Positions 15,611 to 63,978 of a stretch of DNA of 64,000 nt are shown piece after piece. The DNA is from Mustelus asterias (Eukaryota). The notes beneath the pieces were generated by a model that was not told where the DNA came from, did not search any database, and worked only from the letters and a program-made list of their open reading frames with translations. The stretch lies in contig NC_135809.1 in assembly GCF_964213995.1 (NCBI RefSeq), positions 91,946,001 to 92,010,000 of the forward strand, in the 5' to 3' direction. Every line of letters starts with the position of its first letter. Within the stretch, counting starts at the first letter, position 1. A program made the position numbers and the translations under genes.

Positions 15611-15744
15611 TGATTTAGTTAGTAAAGTCATAGACAAACAGATCAGCGTCTCCCATTGTAAGTTATAATCTTTTATCCTTGCAAAGTCTGCACTTTTGAA
15701 TTAGATTGGGCATATTGTGCACATTCCTGGCTGGTCAGTGCAAC

Positions 15745-16910: not shown

Positions 16911-17729
16911 TATACATTCAAATGGAAGTTGGGCTTTTGACGATAGCTAATCAGAACCTGTATTGGATATAAGACCCATGTGATTTACGTTGCCATGTCA
17001 ATGCGTTTTGAGGAGGGAAGGATTTCTAAGACCTCCCCGAAAATGTAATGACATAATTAGTGTCAGGGTCTTGAAAAGAGAGAGCAGCTGGAGGCCAAAA
17101 GACTTTGAATCACTGCGTTGGAATGTGGGTGGAAGCTTGCACATGGATTGAAAAGACCACATTTTCATAGAATCCCTACAGTGCAGATTTGTGAGAAGTT
17201 AACTGGAATATGTGCCTCGCTTACGCTAGAGGGACGATCTCCAGTAATTATCTGACAGTAGAAGAGTTCTTGAGTTAGAATTGACCAAATTGGGAAAGGA
17301 AAAGAACAGAAATTAACCCAGCGGAAGTTAAAAATAACTATGGACTGATTTTGAAAGAATCGAACATCTACTTAAAGGACAGTGCAATTTATACCTATGA
17401 AATGTGCTTTTTTTTGGTTGTACAAAGTATAAGTTGCCTACAGCATTTTCAGGGAGGTCTTAAATATCATTCCCTCCTCAAAACCCATTTACATGGCAAT
17501 GTGAATCACATGGGCCTTGTATCCAATACAGATTCTGATTAGCTATCCAATCTTCTAGTCTCTTGTGACAGTATACATTTCAAAATGTGAAGTCTTGTTG
17601 TGTCATCCCTTTAGCTATTAACTGGAAGTTGGAGTTTCTCATTAAAAGTTATTGGTCTCCGGAGATCATAACAGAGTCATTGGTAACAAGAAATGAGTAT
17701 TGATTACAGAGCATTGGGGAAATTGCTCA

Positions 17730-19624: not shown

Positions 19625-19643
19625 GTGAGTAATATTTCAGAAA

Positions 19644-19732
19644 CCAAAATAAAAAATGCTGGAAAATCTCAGCGGGTCTGACAGAAAAAAAGAGTTGACG
19701 TTTCGAGTCCAGATGACCCTTTGTCAAAAGCT
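19644..19732 (-). mobile_element. Second-family PLE terminal fragment with mutated hammerhead
   Basis: Reverse complement TTGACAA-A-GGGTCATCTGGACTC-GAAA-CG-TC-AACTCT plus family tail. Confidence 0.7.
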
Positions 19733-22242: not shown

Positions 22243-22629
22243 AAAGCCGGAGAATCCCGCCCGACCTTTGCATGGTCCGCTCCCCCGCCCGCTACAATTC
22301 CTGTAACGGGCGGGACGGAAGAATTTGGGAATGTCAAGCGAGGATAAGAATGTGCAAGGTTATAGGAAGTGGGACTAGGTAGAATGCTCTTTCAGAGGGC
22401 CAGTGCACACTCGATGGGCCGAAAGGTCTCCTGTACTGTAAAGACTCTGATTTTTATGACGTTTTGGCAAAACACCAACTTGAGTTCTGCAACATTCCTC
22501 ACCAAAAAAATGTTTTTGTGAAAGATGAGGGTGCTGAAAGGGCAAAGAATATAAGGTGGGATTTCCTTCTCCATTGCACATACTCCCCAGTCTAGACACA
22601 AGTCGGTATGTTCCCAATCCAACAAAAAA

Positions 22630-32000: not shown

Positions 32001-35000
32001 GAGTTAAGATCTTTATTTGGACTCTTCCCAAAAAAGCCTTCCTTTCTTTGTATTCAGGTACATCTATGGACAGACGCTTACCCCAGAGGTCAAAGGTGCT
32101 GCAAGGCAAAGTGTCCACATGATCTCAATGCCACTTTCAGAGTCTCTGACTTTGTTGCCTGAGGAGCAGAGAAATTCTTGGGTATTCCTCACTGCAGTGG
32201 CTGATACAGAAGAGCAAGTGAAGGAATGTTTTGTGGAAGGACAGACCCTGATCCGATTAAACCAGCTGTTTTCTTCACATGTGGCAGCGTGGGCTGCACT
32301 GTGGGAGCAGAGCTGCATCAAAGTGACAGGTTGCAGAAGGCTAAATCAGGCTTTGTATGGCTGTCTGTATTATCTGCTCAGTGCTCTCCCTCCTCTGGAA
32401 CCCACAGACTTCCAGTATATCGGACTAAGTCCTGGAGGTCTCTCCAATGGGGGTAACGGTGAAGATTACTATGGCCACATCTTTTGGGATCAGGTAGGAG
32501 ACAATATTCATGAAGAGTCAGATCACGCGGCTGGATTTTGTGCATTGTAGGAATTTTGGTATAACTTCCCTGGATAAGAATCCCAATGGCTGAGTGGTAT
32601 CTGATCCCACTTAACTTTCAATGGTCAGGATAACTTGCACATTACTATTTCTGTTGAGGAGCATTACCAGTGGAGGAGACACAAACTGCCTGTGGCTGTC
32701 CTCGCACTTGCAGAATATAGTGGGACTGGGGCTTCAGGGCTGAAAACAAATATTTTAAATATGTCTAAATCTGTTTTAACGTGGCTCTTTACTTTTTAAA
32801 AGTTCCTGCATGGCAACATAGTAATCAATAACCTGGTATTTCTCAAATGTAAATGACAGAGGATATGTTATATAATGCTATTCCTTTTATTTTTCAGTGA
32901 GGTTAGTTCTGTGGTGATATTGTTGCCTGAGCCACACCTCCCTCCTACATTACTTGCGTGCAGCCTGGATTGTTTGGTGACCCTCGGACTCTGGTACCTG
33001 TCCTCCCAGCTGCCTCCCCAGTGGTGCTGTTGAGCACAAGAGTTTCCAGCCTCAGTTTGGCTAGAAGCTCGGAGTAGGTGAGACTTCTTCCCTGGGGAAG
33101 GCCCACCGCTGGCCTCACCACTGCCCAGTTGGCTTGTGGTACGATGGCCCTCCCCAAAAGAGAGATAGCGTAGGTCTCTCACTGATTCTCCAGCTGGTAG
33201 CCAAGCTCTGACACCTCAGCAATGTTTCATAGAATCCCTACAATACAGAAGGAGGCCAGTTGGCCCATCGAGTCTGCACCAACTACAATCCCACCCAGGT
33301 TCTATTCCCATAACCCCACATATTTACCCTGATAACCTCTCTGACACCAAGGTCAATTTCACATGGCCAACCCGCACATCTTTGGACTGGGAGGAAACCG
33401 GAGCACCTGGAAGAAACCCATGCAGACACAGGGAGAATGTGCAGACTCCACACAGACAGTGACCTGAGGCTGGAATTGAACCTGGGTCCCTGGTGCTGTG
33501 AGGCAGCAGTGCTAACCACTGTGCTACCATGCCGCCCGTGGATTCCCAATTAGTCATATACCCAGTGGATAATGTATTGGAAAACATTAATACATTAACA
33601 TTAAGCACGGTAGCACAGTGGTTGGCACTGCTGCTTCACAGCTCCAGGGACTTGGGTTCGATTCCCGGCTTGGGTCACTGTCTGTGGGGAGTTTGCACAT
33701 TCTCCTCATGTCTGCGTGGGTTTCCTCCGGGTGCTCCGGTTTCCTCCCACAGTCCAAAGATGTGCGGGTTAGGTTGATTGGCCATGCTAAAATTGCCCTT
33801 AGTGTCCTGAGATGCGTAGGTAGAGGGATTAGTGGGTAAATATGTAGGGATATGGGGGTAGGGCCTGGGTGGGATTGTGGTCGGTGCAGACTCGATGGGC
33901 CGAATGGCCTCTTTCTGTGCTGTGGGGTTTCTATGAATATCATTTATTTTTAAATCCTTTTTTGGTGGAGCAAAGGAAAAATCACATCCATAAAAACACA
34001 ACGTTCCTCGTTCCTACTTTGTACTTGGGATGAGATCAGCTAATGTGGGCATGGATTGGAGATCAAACCTCCTCTCATCTCGTACATTAAACCACTAAGA
34101 TCAAAGAGCCCAGCTGTTACAGTTACAAATTTTAAAAACATCTGTCACAATCTCTGATCGATGGCAGGATGATATTATCATCAAATTCCTCTCGGTCATT
34201 TAATTTAATAGCCCTGTGAGCCAGTTATTAGTTGCCAGAACCCCTTTAGAATATTTCATATTGCTTGTTTCAGGAAACCTGGATGTACCCAAATGTGCTT
34301 GTATTCTACCCAGAGCTGGCACGCACCCTCCTGAAGAACCGTATTCGAACACTTCCTGCTGCCAAGCACATTGCGGGACAGCAAGGATATATGGTAAGTG
34401 TAGTAATTCAGCCAGACTCCAGTTTCCCGTCACCAAAGGCCCCTTATTGCGTACCAAAGAGAAGGATTGCACCTGTGGCTTACAGTGAGACAGTCTACAC
34501 TTCAGGATCTACAACACCGCTGTCCGCTTCTCATTGGGCGAGCCTCCACTAGCTCAATCAGGAAGCTCGTATTCCACAAAGCCCACGGGGAGATCTACTG
34601 ATGCCCTTTGTGGCCATTATAAAAGTAAGCAAGTGGTAACAGGACAGTTAAGTTCCTTTTCACATTGCAGACTCCCTATCCTACACCTGCCTATACTTGT
34701 CACAGGTATTTGCCCCCCCCTAATCTTTTCTCCTCATCATAGAATCATCATAGAAACCCTACAGTGCAGAAGGAGGCCATTCAGCCCATTGAGTCTGCAC
34801 CGACCACCGACCGTTGTGTTTTACTCCTCTCCTTCAATATACTGTCTCTGGTAGTGAAATGGTTTTACAAGCGTCTGACACACTCCCATTCTTAAAAGAG
34901 CAAAATGATTCTTTAACAGCTGAGATTTGTGCAGATGTGTTGCCTTTCATTAATTTCAGAGGAAATTAATTAATTTCCACACTGGGGTGATCCAGAGCAT

Positions 35001-38000
35001 CTGACCATAAACCTAGGAAAGTCTCATTTGATGAATCTCTGCCCATATAACTGATTTATTTTTCCATATTTCAGAGAAGAATTGTATAGACAGCACTGAA
35101 TGACTGCTATGGTTAAGTTTAATTAAGTGAATGTCGGATTATTTGTCTGTGGTAGGGATTGCGGTGTAGGAGACATTCTAACTGAACCTAATACTTCACT
35201 TCTCTCCAACCTCTCCACCAACTGCTGGCTCTATCCAGCCCTGCCCTCCTCCACCCTCCTTACCACAACAGTATACATCTTATCCTATTTTCTATTGCCT
35301 TCAGCACTGATGAAGGGTCATCCAAGCTCAACATTAGCTCTGTTCCCTCTCCACAGATGCTCTCAGAACTGTTGAGATTTTCCAGCATTTTCTGGTTTTG
35401 TTGTCAATGGTTGTTGGACTTCATATACCTGTACTATGTTGCAGAGGTGAACAGAGTACAGTTCCTTCCTCTGCCTCACAATAATAATTTCCTATTAGGT
35501 CAGTGTGACATTTATTACACAGCCTGATTTTGCTAGATGGGTAGATAATAGATTGTACACACAAGTCAGGGCAGTAACTCTGGGAGTAGACCGCAGCAAG
35601 TTTTGAGGAGGCCTCCAAATTGCCCAAGTTGTGTGACATGGATGGGCAAAATGGTTAAAATGGTTAAACCATGTGAAAGAATGAATAAAAACAAATACTG
35701 ATATCAGCTGAGTCCTGTTGTGAACATACTTTGCTCAGCAGATTCCTTTGTTCATTTGTAATATTGAATAAGTGAAAATAGCTTCTTATACCAGTTACAA
35801 TTCTCAGCACCACCTGTTCTATGTTGTGATCAATTTATGAACATTATTACTGAGCCAGATGAGAAATTCAGTCCCGGATGGCAGTCATTGCTCCCTTTAG
35901 CCTGTTATGTACTCTAAATGTGCAGGAGCTGATACTAAAATACACGTGAACCATACAATAGCAAACAGGAGTGAATTGTTCCCTTCTAACTGGTGTATAC
36001 ACTACATACATATTTTGGGACTCAAGATCTAAAACTTCATTCTAAATATCTTCTTTGGTTACCAAAATACTAAATGCTCAGAATGACCACTCCTATTAAT
36101 CTCAGCACAGTTCATTGCAGCTAGTAATGTTAAATCTGTTTTACTTAAATGAGTACAGTGAATGAAGTTTAATATCTCTTGTTTTGTAAGGGTGCCAAAT
36201 ACCCGTGGGAGAGTGCTGCAACTGGATTTGAGGTCTGTAATGAAGATATTTATGGGCTGAAAGAAATTCACATCAATGGTGACATCTCATTTGCATTTCA
36301 GCAGTATTTTTACTTCACCCAGGTGGGTATTGTACTTTGTGCTTCCGCATGCCACCTCGTTGGAGACTGTTACTAATGTTGTTGCTCTGGTTTGGAATTG
36401 GGTTTCCTTCTAATCTTTGGCAGTTTTCTATTCTTAAAGTTTCAAATTTTTGAGCAAGAAGAGAACACATTTGTGGCCCTGAAGAGAGAATTTAGGGCTG
36501 TGGACATGGTGAATTTGAGGCCTGCAGGATGGAAGGAGTCTGACTGGGTGCAAATTGGAGATACCAGGGAATAAGAGTTTAGGATTAGTGAAATGACTAA
36601 ATTTGAGCACAGATAAATTGTGAATTTGGGAGAATTGGAAGAAGTGAGTTTGGAAGTTTTGCAGACATGTTACATGCTGTTTCTGTAATCTCTGATCTCA
36701 AACCTATCAATTTATTTTTGTGTGGTATTTAATCAGTGTCACTATGGTGATTGCTGCTGTGAACTTTCCTGTTGTTTCTCATGAACTGTAATCTTGCATT
36801 GGTTGTCCCCTCCTACCCTATACCCTCACTTTTGAGATCAAGACGGATCAAATAGCCATTGTTTCCCATGATCTGAAAACTCTGGAAGTCATTACTTCCC
36901 TTCATCCTGCTATCTGAAGGATATTAAAACCTAAATTCTGAGGTATCTGATCACAATTACCTCATTTCAACTTGTTAAACTTTGGCAGTTTTCTCTCCTC
37001 AAATCTTCAAATTTTCGAGCTCTTTTATACTTGGGCAAAATGAAAACTCATTTGTGGCTCTGAAGAGAGAGTTTAGGACGTGGTGAATTTGAGGCCTGCA
37101 GGATGGAAGGAGCCTGACTGTGTGCAAATTGGAAATCAACAACACCAGGTTAAAGTCCAACAGGTTTATTTGGTAGCACACGCCACTAGTTTTCGGAGCG
37201 CTACTCCTTCGTCAGGTGAGTGGGAGATCTGCTAGCAAACAGGGCATATAAAGACACAAACTCAATTTACAGAATAATGATTGGAACGTGAGTCTTTACA
37301 GCTAATCAAGTCTTAAAGGTACAGACAATGTGAGTGGAGAGAGCATTAAGCACAGGTTAAAGAGATGAAGAGTTTAGGATTTGTGGAATGACTTGGGTTT
37401 TGAGCACAGGCAAGTTGTGAATTTGGGAGAATAGGAGGAAGTGAGGTTGGGAGTTTTTAAACCATGATTTTGTAGGGAAGTTTAATTCATTACCTGGCTT
37501 GTCTTTCTGTAAATAGTATAAATCTGCTGGAGACTTGTGTGCTTGAAATTTGAAAACACGATGCAATATCTGTGAAGTAGGTAATATTAAAAATGAGCAT
37601 TTTCCCCTCGAGCTCATTTCATCCAGAGCTCATGTTTATTCCATCGTGGTCACCCTCCCATGTACCACCTACCTGATCCTTTACATTAGGAACATAAAAT
37701 TTATTCTGCCATTTCCCCTGAACAAATTCAAGCAAGGCTGTAATTGTCTATTTTCTCAAGCTGGAACATTTGAGCCATTAAGTTAAATGTCTATCCTCAA
37801 TTATTTTCTGGGTGTTTGTTTTAATCTCACAATTTACTTTTGGTTTTAGGACCTGGAGTTTTTCCAGAAGGATGGAGGTTGGGATGTGGTTAGCAGTATA
37901 GCTGAGTTTTGGAGCAGCCGAGTCACTTGGAACCCTTTGGAGGAGTGCTACGAAATCAAAGGTAGTGGATGTGAATTCAAGCAGAACCATGCAGAGCATT

Positions 38001-41000: not shown

Positions 41001-44000
41001 ATGGGGCAATTTTTAACCTGGCCAATCAACCTAACCCGCACATCTTTGGACTATTGGAGGAAACCGGAGCACCCGGAGGAAACCCACGCAGACACGAGGA
41101 GAACGTGCAAACTCCACAGTGACCCGAGCCGGGAATCGAACCCGGGACCCTGGAGCTGTGAAGCAGCAGTGCTAACCACTGCGCTACCGTGCCGCCCATA
41201 TGGACTCCATATGGATGTTGGACTCCTCTTTCAAAGAGCCAGTACAGGCATGATGGGCTGAATGGCCTCTTCCTGTGCTGTACATTTCTATGATTCTATG
41301 AACTTCAACCTCAGAAGAGCAACAGTGTGACATTTCCTTGTTAACAGAAACCAATTTCATGGTCTCTTTGAATGGGCCTACCAATTAGTTGTCATTTTGT
41401 GCTAAATTTTATGCAGTAATTTGGTATGATTCCTTGGCCAAATTGTTTTTGCAGTACCTTTGTATGAGTCTTTGCCCAAATTAGGACTTTGCTTGGGAAG
41501 AACTTCTTTTCTCAAATAGTGGTTCAGTAAAGTCCTGCCTTTCATGATGACTTATTTTCTGAATTTCTTTCACCCGCACCAAAATCCCTGTACACACGAT
41601 TGCCCAATGCGGCCCAATATCTATTTGCAATTTAAACATCAAAAGTTTTTAACCTGAACATACACTGGTCCTGAAATATAGGATGAACAGCAATTAGGAT
41701 ATAGAAAACTCAAGATTTCCATGGTGTATTCCCCCACAATAGGAAGTGTGTACTGCACATGTTGCCTGCATGTGGATTGCTGTGATTTACAGGATACACT
41801 AATTCCTGACCAGTGTTCATAGTACTGGTACAGTACAGCACTTCCATGAATTATTCTTGTTTTCTTGCTTTGTTAACACAATTTCTCCAGTAAAATTGTT
41901 TTGAATTTACTCAAAAATATACCTTTAATTGCCTTAGTGTCTTTAAAACGTCAGATTTTGAGATGGGTGTAACCGAAGTAATTTACTCCATTCTAAAATA
42001 TGTTCGCTGTTAGCGATTTTGTCCTTTGCAAAAATTCACCGGAATGTAACCTCCGCAAACAGTGGCACTTTACCAAAATACCAAGCAAGGAAATAAATGT
42101 GGAAAATAATTCAAAATCAAATCAAATGTCATAATGGCGAAGTAAATGTGTTAATCGAATGAGCTTCAAAGAACCAAGCAGTCTTTTCTTGTCTCTGGTT
42201 TGACTGCCCTTAAATAATGTCTGTTACCAACATGTGAAAAGATCCCGATTAAGATGGGAATCCATATTTTATGTTGGTGACTCACTGATTATTTCACTAC
42301 ATGTAATTTCTTCAAGGAGTGATGCCACCTGATGAATATCAATCGGATGTAACCAATTCTGCCTACACTGCCGTGGTGGCCAAGTACAGGTGAGGATGGG
42401 AGGCGGGGAAATTTCATCTTCCCATTTCTTTTCCAAAGTTACTAGTCTGAGGAATGAGAAAGGGCTGAAATTGAGGCATAAATTATTATAAAAATACAAG
42501 ACCAATTATAAACTCAAATAAGAACAGAAAATGCTGTGAATATTCAGTGGGTCTGGCAGCATCTGTGAAGAGAGCAACAAAGTTAACTTTTCAGGTAGAT
42601 GATCTTTCATTGGAATATTGATTTGCTGAGAATTTTCAACACATTTTGTATTTATTTCAGATATCCAGCTCTGCTTCCATTAAATTATAAAATTACTTTA
42701 GTCTGCAGAGTGAAACACAGCAAGGGCACTTGGGATTATTTGAAATATGAACTGCAATGTTTTTTATTTTTTTTTGAGTTCAAGCGTTTTAAAGTGAATA
42801 TAACTTATTTAGATGCATGATAAAGCTATGTCCCAACCTCAGAAAAGTGACTTCCCAAGAGCACCAATGTGACATTTCCAAAGTCTAAGCAGCTCTTCTT
42901 ATGGTTCGAATGCTAATTGGAGGCAGTGTTTTGTTGTTGTTGGCCTATGCCCAATAGAACTGAGTGGATCTGCATAAACCTGCTCCACGGAAACCTTTAC
43001 AATAGCAGTGGAAGAATTTATCCTTCAGCCTGAATTGTGTTTGAACCTGAGTAGCAAAGATGAAAGTCCAGTAGGCAAATAATGCTGCACCACCCATTTT
43101 CAATTGGAGTATTAAAAAGGTGTCATAAGAACATAAGAAATAGGGGCAGGAGTAGGTCATCTAGCCCCTCGAGCCTGCCCCGCCATTCATTAAGATCATG
43201 GCTGATCTGAAGTGGATCAGTTCCACTTACCCGCCTGATCCCCATAACCCCTAATTCCCTTACCGATCAGGAATCCATCTATCCGTGATTTAAACATATT
43301 CAACGAAGTAGCCTCCACCACTTCAGTGGGCAGAGAATTCCAGAGATTCACCACCCTCTGAGAGAAGAAGTTCCTCCTCAACTCTGTCCTAAACTGACCC
43401 CCCTTTATTTTGAGGCTGTGCCTTCTAGTTCTAGCTTCCTTTCTAAGTGGAAAGAATCTCTCCACCTCTACCCTATCCAGCCCCTTCATTATCTTATAGG
43501 TCTCTATGAGATCCCCCCTCAGCTTTCTAAATTCCAACGAGTACAAACCCAATCTGCTCAGTCTCTCCTCATAATCAACACCCCTCATCTCCGGTATCAA
43601 CCTGGTGAACCTCTCTGCACTCCCTCCAAGGCCAATATATCCTTCCGCAAATGAGGGGACCAATACTGCACACAGTATTCCAGCTGCGGCCTCACCAATG
43701 CCCTGTACAGATGCAGCAAGACATCTCTGCTTTTATATTCTATCCCCCTTGCGATATAGGCCAACATCCCATTTGCTTTCTTGATCACCTGTTGCACCTG
43801 CAGACTGGGTTTTTGCGTCTCATGCACAAGGATCCCCAGGTCCCTTTGCACAGTAGCATGTTGTAATTTTTTTCCATTTAGATAATCCAATTTGCTATTA
43901 TTTCCTCCAAAGTGAATAACCTCACATTTGTCAACGTTATACTCCATCTGCCAGATCCTCGCCCACTCACTCAGCCTGTCCAAATCTCTCTGCAGACCTT

Positions 44001-47000
44001 CAACGGCCTCCACACGATTCACTTTTCCATGTATCTTTGTGTCGTCTGCAAACTTTGTTACCCTACACTCCGTCCCCTCCTTCAGATCGTCTATATGAAT
44101 GGTAAATAGTTGAGGTCCCAGTACCGATCCCTGCGGCTCGCCACTAGTTACCATCCGCCAACCAGAAAAGCACCCATTTATTCCGACTCTCTGCTTCCTG
44201 TTGGATAGCCAATCCCCAATCCACGCTAACACCCTACCCCCAACTCCGTGTGACCCAATCTTCTTCATCAACCTTTTGTGAGGCACCTTATCAAACTCCT
44301 TTTGGAAATCCAAAAACACCGCATCCACCGGTTCCCCTCCGTCAACCGCACTAATCACATCTTCATAAAAATCCAACAAGTTCGTCAAGCACAACTTTCC
44401 CCTCATGAATCCATGCTGCGTCTGCTTAATCGAACCATTCTTATCCAGATGGCCTGCTATTTCTTCTTTAATGATGGATTCCAGCATTTTCCCAACTACA
44501 GACGTTAAGCTAAGCGGCCTGTAGTTACCTGCCTTTTGTCTATTTCCTTTTTTAAACAGCGGCGTAACATTAGCCGTTTAACCTATCTTTCCTTTCTTTA
44601 TCGCTTTCTTAGTCGTTCTTTGTTGTTTCTTAAAGTTTTCTCAATCTTCCAATTCTCCACTATTTTTGGCACTCTGTACGCATCGGTCTTTAATTTAATA
44701 CTCTCCTTAATTTCCTTCGTTATCCACGGCTGGCTATCCCTTTTCTTACAGTCCTTCTTTATCACCGGAATATATTGTTGCTGAGTACTGAAAATGATGA
44801 TCTTAAAAATGCTCCACTATTCCTCAGCTGTCCTACCTACCAGTCTGCTCTCCCAGTCCACCTTAGCCAATTCAGCCCTCATCCTATCGTACTTCCCTCT
44901 GTTCAAACAGAGGACACTGGTATGGGACCCTACTTTCTCCTCTTCCATTTGTATCAGAAATTCGACCATATTGTGATCACTTGACCTAAGAGGGTCCTTC
45001 ACAAGAACATCCTTAATTCTACCTACCTCGTTACACATTACCAGATCTAAGATAACTCGTTCCCTCGTCAGTTCTGTAACATACTGTTCAAGGTAATTAT
45101 CCCGACAGCATTCTAAGAACTCTTCCTCCATCCCACCCCTTCCAACTTGAGTCAGCCAATCAATATGCAGGTTGAAGTCCCCCATGATTATTGCCGTTCC
45201 GTTTTTGCACGCATCCATTATTTGCTTGTTTATAGCCCTCCCCACCTCAACATTATTATTTGGGGGCCTATAGACCACGCCTATTTAGTGTCTTTCTCCC
45301 CCTACTATTCCTTATCTCTACCCATAACGATTCCACGTTTTGTTCCTTAGAGCCTGTCATCCCTCACTACTACCTTGATATTATCTTTTATTAACAGATT
45401 AACATTAACAGTGTCCCTGGACATTGTTGCTGGTGTTCCTCAGGGCAGCATCTTAAGCATAACTATCGTCAATTACTTCATCAGTTACTTTCTCTTCGTC
45501 CTAAGGTCAGAAGTTGGGCTGTTGCCCCGTGATTGTAGAACATTCAATTCCATTCACAATTCTTCAGGTAATGAATTAGTACATGTCAAAATACAGCAAG
45601 GCCGGGACAGCATCCAGGCTTGGGCTGAAAAGTAGCAAGCACCACACCAGTACAGGCACTGACCATCTCCAACAAGAGAAAACCTAACTATCCAGCTTTA
45701 ATATTCAATGGCATTACCGTTGCCATATCCCCCAAAATCAATATTCATGCATTCATTATTGACTAGAAAATCAACTGGACCAACTATATAAATATCATGA
45801 CGATGATAGCAGGTTAGAACTCTGTATTCTGCAAAGAATAGTAGAGAATAGTCCACCCTTAGACCCCTTAAACCTCTCTATTGCCTAAAAAGCAGAAGAA
45901 GTCAGGAATGTGATGGAATACTCTCTACATTCCCAGGCAGATGCAATTGCACCAACCCTCAAGAAGTTTGACACTGTTGAGAACAAAGTATTTTTTCCTT
46001 CCTCCACCCCAACCACCAGTTTAAACACATCCACTCCCTCAACCATTTATCATGGCTGTAGTGTGTACAATAAGTCACCAAAGACTTCTTTCCAGCACCT
46101 TCCAAACTCCTAACCACTACCACCTAGAAGGATAAGAGCAGCAGGTGCATGGGAAAGCCATCACTTACAAGTACCTCTCCAAGTCGCACACTATCCGATG
46201 TTGATACATCACTGTTAGTTCATCATCATTGGGTTGAAATCCTGGGACTCCCTGCTGAACAGCAATGATTGACTGCAGCTCCTTGGGCAAAGTGGAACCA
46301 GCCAGAATTCCCATATCTGATTACCAGCCAGTGACTCTTACATGCAGACATCAGTAGAGGGAAACATTGAGGTGAAAAATATGTCCTTTGTTATGTTTTG
46401 TCGGCTAAGATCATTGAAAATAATGTACTGTGCCATTGAGGATATGCCTATGTAGATCTTCATGTATAGCTATCTGTTCTTGGAATTTTAGGAGGAGACA
46501 GTAGTCAATCTTTTTTATAAGATGTTTTGAAGCCAGATAAGGAGATATTAGGTCAAATGATCAAAAGCTTGGTCCAAGAGGTATATTTTAAGAAATGCCT
46601 TAAAGGGTGAAAGTGATATAAAGTGATACACGGAAGTAAATTCCAGAGCTTTGGGACCTCAGCAACTGAAGACATGGCTACCGATGGTGGTGTAATTTTG
46701 ATTGGGATAACACAAGACCAGAATTAGAGGAGTGCAGATATCTCAGGAGCATTGTAGGGAGGGAGATTACGGAGATGGGGATGGGCAAGGCCATGGAAAG
46801 ATTTGAAAATGAGGATGAGAAATTTAAAATCAAGATCTATTTTCTACATAGTACTACACGTAAGATTTACTATTAATCTCCATTAAATTAACAGAATTTA
46901 AATTATGTTTTTCCAGCCTCCAGTTTGCGACTGAATTGGCATCACATTTAGAAATAACAGTTCCATCAGAATGGATGAAAATAGCTGAGAAAATCAAAGT

Positions 47001-50000: not shown

Positions 50001-53000
50001 ACTGGAACAAACGGTCTGTGTGCACTTGGTTACTGGAGGGGATTGTGAGCTTCCAGTGATCATGATACCATCAGAGGGGAGTCCACTAAGCATTGTAATT
50101 GCAGCTGTCTGCAAGCAAAGCATCAGCTGAACTTGGGAGTAAGGTACTCCGAGATAACGCCGAGTGGCAATGAGGAGTAGCATCCTCAGAGCAGATGTGG
50201 AACCCAGAGCATGAGAAGGGCAGAGAGAGGAACGAGGGATTGGAAGGTAACAAAGGCCATATCCACAGTGTACCACAAGAGGAAGCTGCCTGGACAAGTC
50301 AGAGAATCAGTGCCTACACCCATCTAGGCAAATGGTAACTGATTTGTGCCCTCATTGATGATGACCTCTGACCTTGCTGCATTGCTCACCATGCCCTTTG
50401 GTTCCTAAAATCCAACAAAGTAAATGTAATTTTAACTGAAATTAAATCCAACTCATAAGAGGCGGTTGGAACAAAGTCTTTTTGATGAAACTCGCTTTGG
50501 CCAACTGTCTCTTCGAAATTTCTTGTTCCATTGGCTAATAATTTAATGAAGGTGACCAATGTTGTTTCAGGTTCTTATACTTCTTTTTCAGAGTATGTTT
50601 GCAATTGGTTGGCTGGAGCTGAAGGATATTAGTCAGGCTCAGCAGCAATTGAGCAAGTGTCACAGCAACATTCAGGAACCATTCAAGGTAATTGCCATGA
50701 AAACATTGAGGCACTCTCCAATTATATGCATACTAACCTATAAAATTATCAAAAGCTGACCAAGGCCTTCACGAAAGCCTTTCTAAAAACAATTAAGAGG
50801 TCAGTTTAGAACAGTGATGAATTTGGAATTTCATAAAATCCCTACAGTACAGAAGGAGGCCGTTTCGCCCATCGAGTCTGCTATAACTCTCTGACAGAGC
50901 ATCTTACCCAGCATGTATTTACCCCACTAATCCACCTAACCTATCTTGGGACAGTAAGGGGCAATTTATCAAGGCCAATCCACCTAATCTGCATATCTTT
51001 GGACTGTGGGAGGAAACTGCAGCACCTGGTGGAAACCCACACAGATACAGGGAGAACAAACTAACTCCACACAGTAATCCAAGGCTGGAATTGAACCCGG
51101 GTCCCTGGTGCTGTGAGGTAGCAATGCTAGCCACAATGCTGTCCTGAATTTACCAGGGGGATGAGTGCTGAAGGCCAGAGTTTTATTTTTTTTTCTGGGA
51201 GTTTTCACTCCGGAAACTGAGATTTTCTGGTGCTTTGTTTTTGGTGCCTTTTCAGACTAATTTAGGAAGGACGCACCTCTTTTTAGTGTGTGACCATGGC
51301 CCAGAATTGCCTTGGGGGTGTTCCCAATTGACTACCTTGCTGAAATGTGGCAAAAACACAGTTTATTAATTGCTTCCCCACTGCCCACACTTTTATCCCC
51401 TTCGCACCCTTCCCATTCCAGGATCGCTGAGGCCACCTGGCGCATGCCTGCTGCATGCCCTATGGAGATAAACTAAAAGGATGATTTGCATTTATAAAGT
51501 ACCTTTGAAGTGGAGTCACTGCTGTGATCTGGGAAACGTGGCAGCCAATACACAATCAGCAAACTCCCAGAAACAGCAATGGGTAATGTGATGTAGAGGA
51601 GAATGTAAGTGATCTGATTAGCAAGTTTGCGGACGACACAAAGATTGGGGGAGCTGCGGATAGCGAGGAGGATTGCCAGAGGATAAAGCAGGATACAGAT
51701 AGGCTGGAGACTTGGGTGGAGAAACGGCAGATGGAATTTAATCCGCACAAATGCGAGGTGATGCATTTTAGAAGGTCTCATGCAGGAGGGAAATATACAG
51801 TAAATGGCAGAACCATTAGAAGCATTAACATACAGAGGGATCTAGGTGTACAGTTCCCTTATAGTGGCAGCGCAAGTGGATAAAATGATAAGAAGGCGTC
51901 TGGCTTCATCGGTCGGGGCATAAGTAAGAAAATTGGCAAGCCATATTGCCACTGTATAGAACTTTAGTTCGGCCACATTTGGAATATTGTATACAGTTCT
52001 GGTTGCCAGAAGGATATGGAGGCTTTGGAGAGGATACAGAAAAGGTTTAGCAGGATCTTATCTGGTTTGGAGGGTATTAGCTATGAGGAGAATTGCACAA
52101 ATTTAGTTTGTTTTCACTTGAACTTCTGAGGCTGTGGGGCGACCTGATAGAAGTTTACAAAATTATGAGAGGCATGGATAGTCTTTTCCCAGGATAGAAA
52201 TGTCAATTATTAGGGGACATAGATTTAGGGTACAAGGGAAAAGGTTTAAAGGAGATGTGAAAGGCAGGTTTTTTTTGCATAGAGGGTAGTAAGTGCCTGG
52301 AATGAGTTGCCAGAGGAGGTGGTAGAAGCAGATAAGGTAGCAACGTTTAAGAGGCATTTCGACAGATACACCAATAGAAAAGGCATTGAAGGATATGGAC
52401 AGTGTAGAGGCAAAGGTCTTTAGAAAGGCGTCATGTGTTGGCACAGTCTTGGTGGGCCGAAGGGCCTGTTCCTGTGCTGTACTGTTATTTCTTTCGCAGG
52501 ATGACAGACGTAATCATTATTTATACACACTATTGTGGTTCCCATTTGTTTTTATTTGTGATGTTGATTGAGGGTCAAATATTGGATATTAGGAATAACT
52601 GCCCTGCTCTTCAAAATGGTAAGAAGTCTCACAACACCAGGTTAAAGTCCAACAGGTTTATTTGGTAGCATAAGCCATAAGCTTTCGGAGCGCTGCCCCT
52701 TCGTCAGGTGAGTGGGAATTCTATTCACAAACAAGGCATATAAAGACATAATCTAAATTTACAAGATAATGGTTGGAATGCGAGTCTTTACAGGTAATCG
52801 AGTCTTAAAGGTACAGACAATGTGAGTGGAGAGAGGGTTAAGCACAGGTTAAAGAGATGTGTATTGACTCCAGCCAGGACAGTCAGTGAGATTTTGCAAG
52901 CCCAGGCAAGTCGTGGGGGTTACAGATAGTGTGATATGAACCCAAGATCCCGGTTGAGGCCGTCCTCATGTGTGCGGAACTTGGCCATCAGTTTCTGCTC

Positions 53001-56000
53001 AATGATTCTGCGTTGTCATGTGTCGTGAAGGCCGCCTTGGAGAACGCTTACCCGAAGATCAGAGGCCAAATGCCCATGACTGCTGAAGTGTTCCCCAACA
53101 GGGAGAGAACATTCCTGCCTGGTGATTGTCGAGCGGTTCATCCATTGTCATAGCGTCTGCATGGTCTTCCCATGTACCATGCCTCAGGACATCCTTTCCT
53201 GCAGCGTATCAGGTAGACAACGTTGGCTGAGTTATAAGTGTATGTACTGTGTACCTAGTGGAAGGTGTTCTCATGTGAGATGACGGCATCTGTGTCGATG
53301 ATCCGGCACGTCTTGAAGAGGTTGCTGTGGCAGGGTTGTGTGGTTTCGTGGTCACTGTTCTCCTGAAGGCTGGGTAGTTTGCTGCGGACAATGGTCTGTT
53401 TGAGGTTGTGCAGTTGTTTGAAGGCAAGAAGTGGGGGTGTGGGGATGGCCTTGGTGAGATATTTGTCTTCATCGATGACATGTTGAAGGCTCCGGAGACG
53501 ATGTCGTAGCTTCTCCGCTCCAGGGAAGTACTGGACGACGAAGGGTACTCTGTCCACCGTGTCCTGTGTTTGTCTTCTGAGGAGGTTGGTGCGGTTTTTC
53601 GCTGTGGCATGTCGGAACTGTCGATCGATGAGTCAAGCGCCATATCCTGTTCTTATGAGGGCATCTTTCAGCGTCTGGAGGTGTCTGTTGCGATCCTCCT
53701 CATCTGAGCAGATCCTGTGTATACGGAGGGCTGTGTAGGGGATGGCTTCTTTAATGTGTTTAGGGTGGAAGCTGGAGAAGTGGAGCATCGTGAGGTTATC
53801 CGTGGTTTTGCGGTACAGTGAAGTGCTGAGGTGACTGTCCTTGATGGAGGTGCGTGTGTCCAAGAATGCAGCCATCACAAGAACGACACAATGGATGTCT
53901 CGGCACTCTCCATCAGCATCCCCGCTGACAATGGCACTGCTGCAACTGCCTCAGTACTCAACGCCGACAACAACACAAGGCCAACACACCCGGCCGTCCC
54001 ATCGTATCGGGCAATAGGACCCTGTGCGAGAACCTCTCCGGCTACGTCGAGGGCATCCTGAAACCCATTGTACAAAGAACCCCCAGCTTTTGTCGCGACA
54101 CTACGGACTTCCTACAGAAACTCAGCACACATGGAGCAGTTGAACCAGGAGCACTCCTTGTCACAATGGATGTCTCAGCACTCTACATCAGCATCCCCCA
54201 TGACGATGGCATTGCTGCAACTCCCTCAGTACTCAACACCGACAACTGCCAATCTCCAGATGCAATTTTACAACTCATCCGCTTCATCCTGGACCACAAC
54301 GTCTTCACCTTCAACAATCAGTTCTTCATCCAGACACACTGAACAGCCATGGGGACCAAATTCGCACCTCAATATGCCAACATCTTCATGCACAGATTCG
54401 AACAAGACCTCTTCACCGCACAGGACCTTCAACCGATGCTATAGACTAGATACATCGATGACATTTTCTTCCTTTGGACTCATGGTGAACAATCACTGAA
54501 AAACTATATGATGACATTAACAACTTCCATCAAACTCACCATGGACTACTCTCCGGAAGCGGTTGCATTCTTGGACACACGCATCTCCATCAAGGGCGGT
54601 CACCTCAGCACTTCACTGTACCGCAAGCCCACAGATAACCTCACGCTGCTCCACTTCTCCAGCTTCCACCCTAAACACGTTAAAGAAGTCATCCCCTACG
54701 GACAAGCCCTCCGTATACACAGGATCTGCTCAGATGAGGAGGATCGCAACAGACACCTCCAGACGCTGAAAGATGCCCTCATAGGAACAAGATATGGTGC
54801 TCGACTCATCGATTGACAGTTCCGTTGCGCTACTGCAAAAAACTACACCGACCTCAGAAGACAAACACGAGACACGGCAGACAGAGTACCCTTCGTCGTC
54901 CAGTACTTTCCCGGAACGGAGAAGCTATGACATCCCCAGAGCCTTCAACATGTCATTGATGAAGATGAACACCTCGCCAAGGCCATCCCCACACCCCCAC
55001 TTCATGCCTTCAAACAACTGCACAACCTCAAACAGACCATTGTCCGCAGCAAACTACCCAGCCTTCAGGAGAACAGTGACCACGACACCACACAACCCTG
55101 CCACAGCAACCTCTGCAAGACATGCCGGATCGTCGACATGGATGCCATCATCTCACGTGAGAACACCATCCACCAGATACACGGTACATACCCTTGCAAC
55201 TCAGCCAATGTCGTCTACCTGATACGCTACAGGAAAGGATGTCCCGAGGCATGGTACATTGGGGAGACCATGCAGGTGCGACGACAACGGATGAATGAAC
55301 AGCGCTCGACAATCATCAGGCAAGAGTGTTCTCTTCCTGTTGGGGAACACTTCAGCAGTCATGGGCATTCAGCCTTTGATCTTCGGGTAAGCATTCTCCA
55401 AGGCGGCCTTCATGACACCCGACAACGCAGAATCGCTGAGCAGAAACTGATAGCCAAGTTCTGCGCACATGAGGACGGCCTCAACCGAGATCTTGGGTTC
55501 ATGTCACACTATCTGTGACCCCCACGACTTGCCTGGGCTTGCAAAATCTCACTAACTGTCCTGGCTGGAGACAATATGTATCTCTTTGACTGTGCTTAAC
55601 TCTCTCTCCACTCACATTGTCTGTACCTTTTAAGACTTGATTACCTGTAAAGACTCACATTCCAACCATTATCTTGTAAATTGAGTTTATGTCTTTATAT
55701 GCCCTGTTTGTGAACAGAACTCCCACTCGCCTGATGAAGGAGCAGCGCTCCAAAAGCTTGTGGCTTGTGCTTCCAAATAAACCTGTTGGACTTTGACCTG
55801 GTGTTGTGAGACTTCTTACTGTGCTTACCCCAGTCCAACGCCGGCATCTCCACTTCAAAATGGTGCCAGTGCATCTTTTACCTCCATCTGAGCAGGCAGA
55901 TATAACCTCGGATTACTGTATCATCTGAGAGACATAGAAAATAGGTGCAGGAGTAGGCCATTTGGTCCTTTGCGCCTCCACAACAACTCAATATGATCAT

Positions 56001-59000
56001 ACACTTTCAGTATCGCACTTCTACTTTCTCTCCATATCCCTTGATCCCTTTAGCCACAAGGGCCACGTCCAGCTCACTCTTTAACATATCTAACAAACTG
56101 GCCCCAACAGCTTTCTATGGTGGAGAATTCCACAGGTTCACAACTCTGAGCGAAGAAGCTTTTCCTCATCTCAGTCCTAAATGGCTTATCCCTTATTCTT
56201 AGACTGTGACCCCCTAGTTCTGCACTTCCCCAACATTGGGAACATCCTTCCCGCATCTAGTCTGTCCAGTCCCATCAGGATCTTGTGTTTCTGAGATTCC
56301 CTCTCATTCTTCTAAATTCCAGTGCATGCAAGCCCAATACAAGTATTTCCAACATTATAGTGCTCTCTCAGAACTTGATTTTTGTGCTACCCTGGAGTGG
56401 GAAATTAATCCAGAATTTGCTGATTCAGAGGCAAGAGTGCCACCAACTGAGCCATGGCTGTCTTTCTATGGATTTGACAATGATTGAAATTTTAACCTTC
56501 CAGGTCTGGTCATTTTCAAGGTTGTGTACAGAATGTGAATCAATGTGGTGCTTGTTGAAAGTTTTCTTGATGTTGGTTTTTACCATTTTTTTCCTATTTC
56601 AGGTTTGGAGTGAAAATGCAGATGGGTCAGGAGCTGTGAATTTCCTGACAGGAATGGGTGGCTTCTTGCAGACCATGCTATTTGGCTACACTGGCTTCAG
56701 GTCAGTCTGAATTTAGCCAAGTTTTATTTGAGTTATTGGGATATGCAATAATCAATTTCAGTATGCACAAGAAATTTGCTTATATTACAGTTGTATACTA
56801 GGATAATGCTCTTGAATATTTTCTTCCACTCTTTCTTCCATTAAATTCCCCCTCCACTTCTGAAAGCTTCGGTGACAAACAGGTCCTTGGGTGTTGCCAG
56901 CTCACCCCTATCTCAAGCAAGTTGCTGTTGTTTGTGTGCAAACTTGGTCACTTAATATTGTTGGCTACTTGGTCATGGACAATACTACAGCAGATGTTGA
57001 TCCTGTCCTCAGCCCAAATAGAATCACTGGATGCCCATCAAGACCAGGAACCTTGACTGCTTTATCTCTCCTTAGAGCTAAACACTGCCTGCCACTGAAG
57101 TGAGAAAGACAACGTTATCCGAGGTTGGGGGTTAACTCAGTTTTCTGATCTATGTTGCTGAACTTATTGGATAGTCTAACTGAATTTTTGAAAAGTGAAC
57201 AGATGTTTTATTTTCATCGAGTTTACCAGGAGCTGACTTGAGTACAAAAAATAAATGAGGCCTTTGCTCAAGAAATGTTCCAGGATGAAGCTTAACCACA
57301 GAATTTTTGTTTTTGGAAGTAACTCATTACTTACACCTTCCCCTATAAGTGTCTTAAATTACTGTTTGAACTGTATGCTCGGCATTGTTCCAAGATGTTG
57401 TGGCTGAAAGAAATATCTCTTACTCTGTGGATTCAACTTCCTGTTGTTCTGTGATAGACCTCCAGTGATGTGACCTGGCCACTCCTTTTTCAGAGGAGTT
57501 CTGATTCTGCACCACTGAAAATAATGTCTTTACTCCCTAAGCTAATAGGAGGGTTTTGGCAAGATTTGCTTATAATTCAGAATGTTGTTTTTGCAAACAT
57601 TGAACATTTAGTATGGTCCTTCTGAGGCATGCAGATGTCATCATTAACTTCAACGTATCAGTGGGGGTCAGACTGGCATTCTGTTAGTTGAGCTCTGACT
57701 AATTAAGGGTTTGGTGTTGGCACTGGGTTGTGCAGCTGAACAGGCCAGCCTTTGTCTCTTTCACCGAAGGATTTGCCTGATACTTGCAGTTGGAACTTGG
57801 ATGGAAAGGTAGACACAACAGTACTATGGATCTATGTAAGAACATAAAAATGCTTTGGGAGGATGAAAAGGCCTTTGATCTAATAAGGCCCTTTTGACAT
57901 CTCCTCTCATAATACTGTCTGCTTCAGTATTTTTACCTGATAACTCATTAGGCTTTTTCATTATACTTCAAGTGAATAAAACAGTCTGACTTCTTGCTCC
58001 TAACTTATTTTTAAACGTATGGTGATATTTGAATTATTTTTCCATATCGAACAATTTGTTTGGATCGACTTTCCTTCATTGCCATGGATAACCGAGGAAA
58101 ATGTATTTACTGTGGTTATGACCATTTCCAGTTACTGTCACAAGAAAGATCCCACCCTCTGTCTGCAACTCTTGACTTCTGATCTGTATTTTGTGCTTTG
58201 CTTTTGCAGGATCATGAAGACCTATCTGCACTTTGACCCCATATACCCAGAGGACATGGGGGAACTATGGATTACTGGAATTAATTACCTTGGAAACAAA
58301 CTACAATTTAAGCTTTCTACAGAGAAGGTCACAATTGTTTTGACAAGGCCTTGTGGATTTCGGCACTCAGCCTTGGAAGTTGTTCTAAGTAATTCAGGAA
58401 AGAGTTTTGTTCTAAATGCAGGTAATATTAGGAAGTTCATACCGTATTTCAATTGAGACAATCTGGATTTTGATTGGTATGTTCAATTCCCTGGTCAGTG
58501 TTGCAGAGAGTTGACTTGAGAGAAGAACAGTTACGTGCAGCAGCCAACATTTCACATTTTGGGGTTTAGATCGATGTCATAGACTGACAACAATTAGCAC
58601 CAAGAAATGATTCTGGCAACCACATACTTGAAAGATTGTTTTCAAATATAGCACTTTTCACATCCTCTGGATAATCCAAAATGCCTCACAACCATTGACT
58701 TGGTTGGCAAATGTGACAGCCAATTTGCATTTGGTAAATTTCCACTCATCTGTTTTGATGTTGGTTAAAGAATATTGGCTATGATGTTTGAGAAAATTCC
58801 CTAGTCTTCTCACAATACTATGGGATCTTTTATGTCCACATTTTGCAAGATCTTGAATTAAAGAGCACTACTTTGGGTGGAGGAAGGCAATATTAATTGA
58901 GAGGGTGTGTAGGTGGAAATGACAGAATGAACTGTGTTGAATGAACAGGTTGAATTGAAGGGGATGAATGGTACCAGCTTGAGCAGAGAGGGGAAGAAAA

Positions 59001-60961: not shown

Positions 60962-61670
60962 TAAGAAAAAGCTGCAAATACTCAGCAGAGTCTGTGGGGA
61001 GGAAACAGCATTAATATTTCAGGTTGATGACCTTTCATCAGAACTGAAGAAAGATGAATGTAAGTTTTTAAGCCAGTAGAAGGGGGAAATTTGGACAGGA
61101 AGAACAAAATGGAAGGTCTGTGATAGGGTAGAGGGGAGGAGAGATTCACTAACAAAAGATTTCATTATGCAAAAGCCCAATGTACAAATAGGTAAAGTGA
61201 TAGAGGTTGTGTCCAGATTAGCTAACTCATGACTATATAGCAGTCATCCAAAAGCAACATTAAGAAATAAAAAGGGATAGAAAAAAGCCAGCAAAAGAAA
61301 ACATAGAGCTAGAGGCAGAGGTTCTGATCTAAAGTTGTTGAACCCAACACTGACTCCAGAAGGCTGTAGAGTGCCGAGATGAGGTGCTGTTAATTGAGGC
61401 TATGCTGAGATTTATTGGAACAGTGTCGCAGATCATGGATAGCAAGGTCAAAGTGGGAGCAAGGTGGAGAATTAAAATGATGTGATGGGAAGCTCTGGAT
61501 CATGTTTGTGAACTGAATAGAAGCATTCCACAAATCAGTCACCCAGTCTATGTTTGGTCTCTCCAGTATAGAGGAAACCATGTTAGTGAAAATAGTGTAT
61601 TAAATTGAAAGAAGTGCAAGTAAAATGCTGTTGGAAGGAGTGTTTGAGGCCCTGGATGGTGGGAAGAGAG
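60962..61670 (-). mobile_element. Old Penelope 3' end (GIY-YIG remnant plus hammerhead at 61005-61046)
   Basis: The minus strand reads LYTGETKHRLGD...HFNSPPCSH...GTLQP...FNNFR across frameshifts; CAGTT-CTGATGA-A-AGGTCATCAACCT-GAAA-TA-TT. Confidence 0.75.
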
Positions 61671-62429
61671 GTGCAATAGCCAACCATCCTGGAATGTGTG
61701 GGAGTCTCCTAGATTTGCCATCTGTCAGTGGCTATTAAAGGTATTCCGGGAGAATTTAGAATAATGTTTCAAGAAAATGTTTGTTTTGTGCAGAGGCTCT
61801 GCTCACTCATCTTTGATGGAAAAGAGTGACCCGATTGCATTCACAGTGCAATGAAAAGTTGTAAACCAATACACTCACTAACGTCATTGCATTGCATGTT
61901 TTCCCATTGGCACTCGGTCTCGATCCTGAGGAGCCAGCACTGCTGCAAGATCAACTGAACTTTCAACCGCCCGAGCCAGCCTAGATTTGTACATGCCAGG
62001 AGTCCTGAGACTGGAGTTAAGGAAACGCTGCTGAGCTCGAAAAATTAGCCAGCAAAAGAAAACATATAGAGGCAGAGGTTCTGATCTAAAGTTGTTGAAC
62101 CCAACACTGACTCCAGAAGCCTGTAGAGTGCAGCCTAAAAACTTAGCTTTTTTGAGCTGAGGTAATTTAGTAAAAGGAATGGTGCTGCTTACATTACAGC
62201 TGGAAGAAAGCCTGTCTAATAATAGTGATGTCTGATTGATTTCTTTATTGTGTCCTGGTTTCAACAATGTAAGAAAATACCCCAAAACGTTGAACTGGAT
62301 TTATAGCTGAGGGACAAAAACAGAAAATGCTGGAAAATCTCAGCAGGCCTGACAGCATCTGTGGAGAGAGAATAGGGTAAGAAGTCTAACAACAGGTTAA
62401 AGTCCAACAGGTTTATTTGGTAGTAAAAG

Positions 62430-62468
62430 TTACTAGCTTTCGGAACAGGCTGTCCCTTCGTCAGGGGG
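62430..62468 (-). ncRNA. Hammerhead motif, core intact, stem I disrupted
   Basis: Reverse complement reads CCCC-CTGACGA-A-GGGACAGCCTGTTCC-GAAA-GC-TA-GTAA. Confidence 0.6.
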
Positions 62469-62545
62469 GTGGGGGAGTTCTGATCACAAACAGGGCACAA
62501 ACTGAGTTTGTGTCTTTGTGGTCTGTTTGTGATCAGAACTTCCCC

Positions 62546-62584
62546 CCACCTGATGAAGGGACAGCCTGTTCCGAAAGCTAGTGG
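62546..62584 (+). ncRNA. Minimal type I hammerhead ribozyme motif, intact
   Basis: CCAC-CTGATGA-A-GGGACAGCCTGTTCC-GAAA-GC-TA-GTGG. Stem I CCAC/GTGG, stem II GGGAC/GTTCC, palindromic AGCT stem III; predicted cut after A62580. Confidence 0.8.
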
Positions 62585-62879
62585 CTTTTGCTACCAAATA
62601 AACCTGTTGGACTTCAACCTGATGTTGTTAGACTTCTTACTGTGTTCACCCCAGTCCAACGCTGGCATCTCCACATCGAGAGAATAGGGCCAATGTTTCA
62701 AGTCAGTGATGGAAGGGTCATCCAGACTTGAAACGGTAGCCCTATTCTGTCTCTACAGATGTTTTAAGACCTGCATTTCTTGTTTCAGATTCCAGCATCC
62801 GCAGTATTTTATCATGGATGAGAGAGGTAACTGTAATACATTGATATGTTTTTAATTCTGTGTCTATGTGGGGCTTCTC

Positions 62880-63150
62880 AGGCTCAGCCCCCTGCGATCG
62901 TCACAGCCCGCACCGAGATGCTAAGTCACAGAGTTGTAGAGCGAAGCTAAGGCCCACCAAGTATAGGCTTCAAACTGAAGACAAGGGAACCCAGTCATTA
63001 CTCTGGGAGCGGGACGGGAAACGGATCTGAGGTAAGGGACGTACTGCGTCAGTTCCGACGCATCACGGCGGTTCCTTGGCTGCCATTGGTTCGGGGAGCA
63101 ACCGCCGCTGAATTTAAAAGTTTAAACGGGTGAGAGCGCGCGGCGGCAGC
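62880..63150 (+). promoter_or_regulatory. CpG-island promoter/first exon of a probable downstream gene (identity unknown)
   Basis: CpG-dense; TGCGTCA and inverted CCAAT (ATTGG near 63085); donor-like GAG|GTAAGG (63032) and CGG|GTGAGA (63130). Confidence 0.5.
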
Positions 63151-63158
63151 TCGGAGCT

Positions 63159-63978
63159 CCGGATCCCCGTCCCGGTGAGCGGCACTCGGTCCCGGATCCC
63201 CGTCCCGGTGAGCGGCACTCGGTCCCGGATCCCCGTCCCGGTGAGCGGCACTCGGTCCCGGATCCCCGTCCCGGTGAGCGGCACTCGGTCCCGGATCCCC
63301 GTCCCGGTGAGCGGCACTCGGTCCCGGATCCCCGTCCCGGTGAGCGGCACTCGGTCCCGGATCCCCGTCCCGGTGAGCGGCACTCGGTCCCGGATCCCCG
63401 TCCCGGTGAGTGGCACTCGGTCCCAGATCCTCCTCCCGGTGAGCGGCGCTCGGTCCCAGATCCTCCTCCCGGTGAGCGGCGCTCGGTCCCAGATCCTCCT
63501 CCCGGTGAGCGGCGCTCGGTTCCGGATCCCCGTCCCGGTGAGCGGCACTCGGTCCCGGATCCCCGTCCCGGTGAGCGGCGCTCGGTCCCGGATCTCCGTC
63601 CCGGTGAGCGGCACTCGATCCCGGATCCTTCTCCCGGTGAGCGGCACTCGGTCCCGGATCCACGTACCGGTGAGCGGCACTCGGTCCCGGATCCTTCTCC
63701 CGGTGAGCGGCACTCGATCGCGGATCCTCCCCCCGGTGAGCGGCACTCGATCGCGGATCCTCCTCCCGGTGAGCGGCACTCCGTCGCGGATCGTCCCCCC
63801 GGTGAGCGGCACTCGGTCCCGGATCCTCCTCCCGGTGAGCGGCACTCGGTCCCGGATCCTCCTCCCGGTGAGCGGCACTCGGTCCCGGATCCTCCTCCCG
63901 GTGAGCGGCAGTCCGTCGCGGATCTGCCCTCCGTTAACGGCGCTCGGTCCCGGATCCTCCCCTCCCCGCGGTGAGCGG
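63159..63978. repeat. 33-bp GC-rich minisatellite, about 24 units (CCGGATCCCCGTCCCGGTGAGCGGCACTCGGTC)
   Basis: Directly visible tandem array; 11-aa periodicity in all overlapping ORFs. Confidence 0.97.

Follow-up and report, generated by a model that had tools for sequence, protein, structure and literature searches.

We have found that a fold-back unit of about 300 nt in the genome of the shark Mustelus asterias, which carries a hammerhead ribozyme core on each strand, is very probably a one-off, old insertion of a shark Neptune-type Penelope-like element (PLE) that was dead on arrival. The window, by which we mean the whole 64-kb stretch of DNA analysed, had earlier been read from its letters alone. 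That initial annotation put forward a propagating mini-element with viroid-like ambisense ribozymes and offered, as the simpler reading, a one-off and extremely truncated PLE insertion. It is the simpler reading that our analysis supports, whereas the propagating element finds little to sustain it: its junction is present in a single copy in the window, and the other fold-back of the family differs, having arms of 1.25 kb. Beyond what had been noticed before, the window holds three relatives of the unit, one of them part of a long coding fold-back, and the unit itself is nested in another fold-back repeat. Its parts, in window positions, are the following:

62366 to 62377, no strand: left target-site duplication, 12 bp, the final G of which is possibly arm sequence
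62378 to 62501, minus strand: left arm, a tail-less copy of the PLE 3' end (pLTR), inverted and 5'-truncated, 84-87% identical to three other segments of the family
62430 to 62468, minus strand: minimal type I hammerhead with core and stem II unbroken but a stem I of only 1 bp, predicted to be dead
62496 to 62514, no strand: head-to-head junction, containing an 11-nt near-palindrome (62499-62509), with the arms overlapping by 3-5 nt
62499 to 62640, plus strand: right arm, a sense, 5'-truncated copy of the PLE 3' end, 81-84% identical by blastn to 55678-55856, 52619-52760 and 37138-37268
62546 to 62584, plus strand: minimal type I hammerhead whose motif is complete, cut site 62580/62581
62641 to 62677, plus strand: tail of 37 nt, unpaired and at one end only, matching the tail of the long copy described below at 30 of 33 positions
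62678 to 62689, no strand: right target-site duplication, an exact 12-mer repeat of 62366-62377

The 11-12-bp duplication reported by the initial annotation is present as an exact 12-mer on both sides, and its length comes to 11 or 12 bp depending on whether the final G, which can pair with the arm too, is counted. When one 12-mer is kept, the flanks align without gaps to all three tested copies of the repeat that hosts the insertion; when both are kept, a 12-nt gap is forced in two of the three alignments and one stops early. Because the one-copy flanks fit the host repeat ungapped and the two-copy flanks do not, the 12-mer is a true target duplication. By chance, 12 nt were shared in 6 of 5000 pairs of random 55-nt windows at the same spacing.

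The inverted arms and 37-nt tail stand as first described. The arms are about 125 bp long and agree at 113 of 122 aligned positions (92.6%, with 5 gap columns, comparing 62378-62501 with 62515-62639). They fold into a rod with z scores of -22.9 on the plus strand and -24.5 on the minus strand, and on neither strand was any of 200 shuffles equally stable. The loop of about 3 nt that had been placed between the arms is one of two registers of the turn. It closes a 7-bp hairpin (62496-62512) at the cost of an 8-nt bulge, whereas the minimum-energy fold has a 13-nt loop; the two registers lie within 0.4 kcal/mol of each other (<0.5). The junction sequence occurs once in the window. A near match to its 11-nt near-palindrome is present in other copies of the parent family and, because the junction sits on a near-palindrome that separate insertions might reuse, a junction shared across loci would not on its own prove a family. 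The locus has no terminal redundancy and no tandem array, and each strand holds one hammerhead core. The unit had been called ORF-less, and its coding capacity indeed amounts to three ATG frames of 20-44 aa, on which ground we rejected a functional small ORF.

The plus-strand minimal hammerhead is intact as a motif, as had been claimed, with a 4-bp stem I (62546-62549/62581-62584), a core (62550-62556) followed by an extra A, a 6-bp stem II (62558-62563/62567-62572) and a GAAA (62573-62576); a palindromic tetramer replaces stem III, and this architecture requires a dimer with a partner of the same polarity. On the minus strand the core and stem II are identical to the plus motif, in line with the earlier description, but stem I, there called damaged, is down to 1 bp and so destroyed. 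The two cut sites lie 147 nt apart on opposite strands. These calls rest on a motif scan and on the published description of minimal hammerheads (PMC4209133). Over both strands of the 64 kb the scan found five cores with a paired stem II, four of them in the focal PLE family. At gathering score Rfam returned no match in the whole 64 kb, recognising neither hammerhead, and a search of 61800-63200 with E up to 10 gave nine matches, all below gathering and none a hammerhead. The miRNA and flavivirus CRE models that scored below gathering were rejected as mere hairpin-shape matches.

Each arm carries a hammerhead because this motif lies within ~100 nt of the PLE 3' end, and the rod fold and the two-polarity ribozymes are by-products of the arrangement. 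The second ribozyme is no more than a mirror copy of the first. The proposal that the antisense arm would mask the ribozyme is borne out by folding predictions: adopting the hammerhead fold costs 58.7 kcal/mol (plus) or 55.5 kcal/mol (minus) in the full unit against 4.5 kcal/mol in the isolated plus arm, and its predicted probability within the rod is ~1e-40 on both strands. The rod fold is thus predicted to bury the ribozymes of both polarities, and the unit would be inactive as a ribozyme source. When two minimal plus ribozymes are allowed to cofold freely they form an extended stem II duplex, but the model cannot score the double hammerhead and we draw no evidence from this fold. In published assays a single minimal hammerhead does not cleave in vitro and dimers cleave weakly (PMC4209133; review PMC6765202). 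Moreover, each transcript of the unit contains one sense ribozyme, and hence no unit-length or circular RNA can be excised from it.

Three further segments of the focal family are present in the window, at 81-84% identity, two of them being the ends of one 3.25-kb insertion:

52609 to 55864, no strand: long relative, ~7 kb upstream of the focal unit, with 12-bp duplications at 52609-52620 and 55853-55864
52620 to 53873: its inverted arm, 1254 nt
53887 to 53971: an extra direct copy of 85 nt at its junction
53974 to 55852: its sense part, with a broken reverse transcriptase (RT) and GIY-YIG frame and a 33-34-nt tail
37139 to 37367, minus strand: single-armed truncated copy of the same family, tail absent and duplication not found

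The link to Penelope-like elements drawn by the initial annotation is supported by this same-family copy with RT and GIY-YIG sequence. By tblastn, the sense part of the long relative is 79.8% identical over 519 aa to the Heptranchias RT protein P0002, in which RVT_1 scores above the Pfam cut-off. For its C-terminal frame the best Atlas feature match is to GIY-YIG clusters (0.97), and the best of 25 listed database matches is from Mustelus asterias (88%). Pfam gave no family for the window's own broken RT or endonuclease pieces, and the endonuclease could not be named from solved structures either. Ahead of it lies a C-x4-C-x2-C linker (frame 54931-55518); a CX2-5CxxC linker between RT and endonuclease is described as a mark of Neptune and Nematis that is absent from Penelope and Poseidon (PMC8557442). 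From this motif, which is common to Nematis as well, and from the vertebrate host, we assign the family to the Neptune type. The RT and GIY-YIG relative, the minimal type I hammerhead in the pLTR, the one-ended tail, the inverted 5'-truncated copy and the short duplication are all found, and by these marks the focal arms are the truncated 3' end of an EN+ PLE.

The long relative lies between exons resembling PGGHG (see below) and is thus probably intronic. The single-armed copy interrupts the second copy of a local duplication (36411-36660 and 36976-37457), and comparison of the two suggests that ~10 nt were lost, not duplicated, at its insertion site. At 45154-45192, 39 nt weakly resemble the family's 3' end (E 0.01) and are possibly an older remnant. 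Pieces of the coding sequence of this PLE are also contained in the shark gene models P0005, P0009, P0012, P0014 and P0016; gene models with such pieces include septin 5a, XRCC5 and a cytochrome P450, and represent annotation artefacts or exonisation.

The focal unit and the long relative share an organisation: their left arms begin at the same element base, a tail is found at the right end alone, and a 12-bp duplication flanks each. Their junctions differ, this being a comparison of the only two fold-backs of the family in 64 kb, as do their arms (124 versus 1254 nt). At its junction the long copy has an asymmetric spacer, 687 nt long, that includes a template jump and is no hairpin; besides the 85-nt template-jump copy, the junction contains ~13 extra bases. 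Hammerhead remnants are found on both strands of the long copy, both damaged.

Identity between the two focal arms (92.6%) exceeds that of either arm to the remaining segments of the family (83.7-87.1%), and each arm has private changes, among them a 3-nt gap and the loss of stem I in the left arm. Their divergence is similar to that of the dead long copy, whose arms are 91.3% alike over 1247 positions. On this sequence comparison, the arms have decayed independently and neutrally since insertion. Both also have a 6-bp stem II with one compensatory pair that is absent from the other three segments, and this common variant indicates that they derive from one template of another subfamily, in which the ribozyme was still kept in shape. 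The arm mismatches lean to G-U over A-C on the plus strand, by 6:1 in the focal unit (p 0.125) and by 53:40 in the long copy (p 0.21), but such a bias was not significant in any of six inverted-repeat arm pairs (p 0.08-1.0). Selection for a plus-strand rod and A-to-I editing of an RNA intermediate are therefore unsupported.

We envisage the insertion as follows. The GIY-YIG endonuclease would cut the target with an 11-12-nt stagger, and each freed 3' end would prime reverse transcription on the element RNA, the first from the end of the tail and the second 37 nt further in, at the boundary between tail and pLTR. The cDNAs would stop after ~179 nt (tail-end start) and ~124 nt (tail-boundary start), and at the 11-nt near-palindrome 62499-62509 their 3' ends would be united head to head by the pairing of a few bases; gap repair would then create the target duplication. 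A read-through transcript of the product would form a 124-bp hairpin in which the ribozyme is masked and stays uncleaved. L1 twin-priming inversions likewise place a truncated, inverted insertion between target duplications, with microhomology at the join, as in the focal unit, but their segments copy different parts of the RNA, whereas the focal arms copy the same 3' end with an offset of the tail.

Several published properties of PLEs fit this scheme. Their insertions are described as 5'-truncated, in many cases next to an inverted copy, and as bearing a 30-40-bp tail at one end (PMC8557442). In rotifer examples the duplications measure 8-10 bp and the inverted junctions contain palindromes (PMC3846280); a curation guide counts inverted pLTRs and short 3' extensions among the usual peculiarities of PLEs (PMC8969392). 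The Poseidon protein of Anolis cuts and extends both target strands in vitro, with two RT start sites that bound the tail, ribozyme cleavage being dispensable (PMC11167929). Those data are for Poseidon in vitro, not Neptune, and the paper stops short of demonstrating how inverted copies form (PMC11167929).

Priming from two sites is, we think, the probable route to the focal unit, though we hold this with some reserve. The left boundary is fixed in both fold-backs of the family, which favours priming at two sites over the snap-back of a single cDNA. In the latter scheme one cDNA would have stopped at the small palindrome, folded back and copied itself into the second arm; we regard this as unlikely, while giving it appreciable weight. 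The junction is centred on the 11-nt near-palindrome, with its 7-bp hairpin and 3-nt loop, as snap-back would have it, and self-priming has been proposed for palindromic PLE junctions (PMC3846280). Snap-back alone, however, does not account for the stop of the left arm at the tail boundary in both fold-backs, and the long copy has at its junction the asymmetric spacer with a template jump rather than a hairpin.

It is improbable that the unit started out as a long inverted PLE of the kind seen at 52609-55864 and lost its centre later, even though long fold-backs do exist in the focal family. No internal sequence can be traced at the junction, and a fold-back that loses its centre would be expected to end up asymmetric, not with a near-perfect turn. 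PLE copies with microhomology-mediated deletions are nonetheless on record (PMC3846280).

Whether the product could itself move is a separate matter. A propagating non-autonomous mini-PLE would be a fold-back whose hairpin is transcribed and re-inserted whole, in trans, by PLE proteins. The focal unit retains what such an element might use, namely clean ends with a duplication, the tail, the RT start sites and the cis 3' end, and its plus hammerhead is intact, unlike the two damaged ones of the long copy; both arms, too, share the subfamily-specific stem II. pLTR sequences suffice for trans mobilisation in rotifers (PMC3846280), and animal retrozymes, one chondrichthyan example included, are proposed to be non-autonomous PLE derivatives (10.64898/2026.07.22.740005). 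Against this, the 64-kb window contains the junction only once, the layout is seen from the long relative to be a product of insertion itself, divergence between the arms is on a par with that in the dead long copy, and no promoter was identified; a 124-bp duplex would also be a poor template. We accordingly give such an element only a slender chance and think that the unit, as one more dead-on-arrival PLE insertion, has probably left no daughters. The broader proposition, that Neptune proteins re-mobilise shark PLE fold-backs as whole hairpins to give a palindromic SINE-like family with a rod RNA bearing hammerheads of two polarities, seems to us just as doubtful. Were it true, it would be a DNA-encoded path from retrotransposon ends to a viroid-like architecture, and daughters with arm-private variants would turn the unit into a non-autonomous element of a new kind.

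We can practically discount the reading that the unit is a viroid-like or retroviroid-like RNA replicon, ambisense in its ribozymes, that became fixed as DNA. The 300-nt size, the rod fold, the hammerhead core on each strand and the lack of any protein are what had suggested it. However, the unit is linear, with target duplications and neither terminal redundancy nor tandem units, every part of it maps to the PLE 3' end, its ribozymes are one motif and a mirror copy of which the minus stem I is lost, and the ribozyme type is inactive as a monomer (PMC4209133). The arms decay independently and no tandem ribozymes of the same polarity are present, so the viroid-like part of the initial annotation is not supported. 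Viroid-like circular RNAs are circles that lack a DNA form and carry two active ribozymes (PMC10162972). The focal unit is like them in its rod fold, small size and ribozyme core per polarity, and differs in being a linear chromosomal inverted duplication with one broken ribozyme copy: the rod is explained by the inverted duplication, two functional ribozymes are not predicted, and a DNA-free circular genome is not what is found.

The comparison with animal retrozymes runs along similar lines. These are head-to-tail tandem units whose ribozymes have the same polarity and release circles (PMC7229834; 10.64898/2026.07.22.740005). Non-LTR animal retrozymes resemble the focal unit in being ~300 nt long and non-coding, with a type I hammerhead and an origin in the PLE pLTR, but the focal unit is head-to-head, with one site per strand, and lacks the tandem same-polarity arrangement. 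With one cleavage site per strand no circle can be excised, and the unit is therefore neither a retrozyme nor a viroid-like RNA.

Cervera and de la Pena (2014) described dual minimal hammerheads on opposite strands, ~100-700 bp apart, in Schistosoma mansoni and related them to truncated PLEs (PMC4209133). The focal hammerheads share with these the 4-bp stem I, long stem II, extra nucleotide before stem II and palindromic stem III; they differ in belonging to a shark family, sharks being unlisted in the accessible part of that article (PMC4209133), and in that the full insertion, with its duplication and a long sibling, can be read. With insertions of Neptune-clade EN+ PLEs (PMC8557442, PMC3846280) the unit shares the inverted 5'-truncated copy, the one-ended 30-40-nt tail, the short duplication, the junction palindrome and the pLTR hammerhead, as well as a parent, in the same window, with RT, CX2-5CxxC linker and GIY-YIG. 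It departs from them in its extreme truncation (124 and 179 nt), which leaves neither coding sequence nor a direct pLTR pair, and in a duplication of 11-12 bp compared with 8-10 bp in the rotifer examples (PMC3846280). The unit is, in short, a further instance of an already published PLE insertion pattern. Literature titles and abstracts outside subscription journals, Repbase and Dfam yielded nothing on the focal shark family or on propagating fold-back mini-PLEs, and a 24-nt conserved stretch of the pLTR had no match in bacterial and archaeal genome contigs, an expected and uninformative result.

The unit is a clear type of false positive for screens that identify viroid-like RNAs by a rod fold with one ribozyme per polarity. 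Short fold-backs with readable duplications are, in addition, natural records of PLE integration, and the 64 kb contain at least three, from two families. A genome-wide catalogue of shark fold-backs could weigh two-site priming against self-priming, a step not validated in PMC11167929.

The repeat into which the unit was inserted is a fold-back in its own right:

62314 to 62815, no strand: the element that the insertion interrupts, a fold-back belonging to a second family of short repeats, in which a minimal-hammerhead-like core also occurs
62314 to 62377 and 62690 to 62704: its left arm
from ~62707: its right arm

The host fold-back is head-to-head, and its junction differs again from that of the focal unit. 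By motif and layout the host repeat family would be PLE-derived, with no coding copy in the window. The family has at least eight loci in the 64 kb (62314-62815, 2910-3012, 14928-15016, 15517-15620, 19643-19726, 35303-35401, 42520-42680 and 60964-61045), which are probably 3' ends of another PLE family; 42520-42680 resembles an asymmetric fold-back. Fold-back arrangements are common in the window beyond PLEs: other interspersed repeats form long inverted pairs, head-to-head or tail-to-tail, at 6400-7161, 16942-17547 and 33226-33937, and the arms of these pairs are 86-94% alike.

The plus strand carries exons resembling protein-glucosylgalactosylhydroxylysine glucosidase (PGGHG) at 32260-32493 and 58004-58456, with E 6e-20 to solved structures and Glyco_hydro_65C below the cut-off; the focal unit lies ~4 kb past the last such exon found. 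A CpG-island-like stretch at ~62880-63160, which may be a promoter, directly precedes a GC- and CpG-rich 33-bp minisatellite of 24.5 copies (63159-63966), the latter open in three long frames because its unit is a multiple of 3 without stops. Elsewhere in the window, broken LINE reverse transcriptase and endonuclease frames, which we take to be CR1-like from their motifs, lie on the minus strand at 20233-22359 and 43217-45284, and a 156-aa frame on the plus strand at 1247-1717 encodes a Myb/SANT-like DNA-binding domain (Pfam E 1.5e-17).
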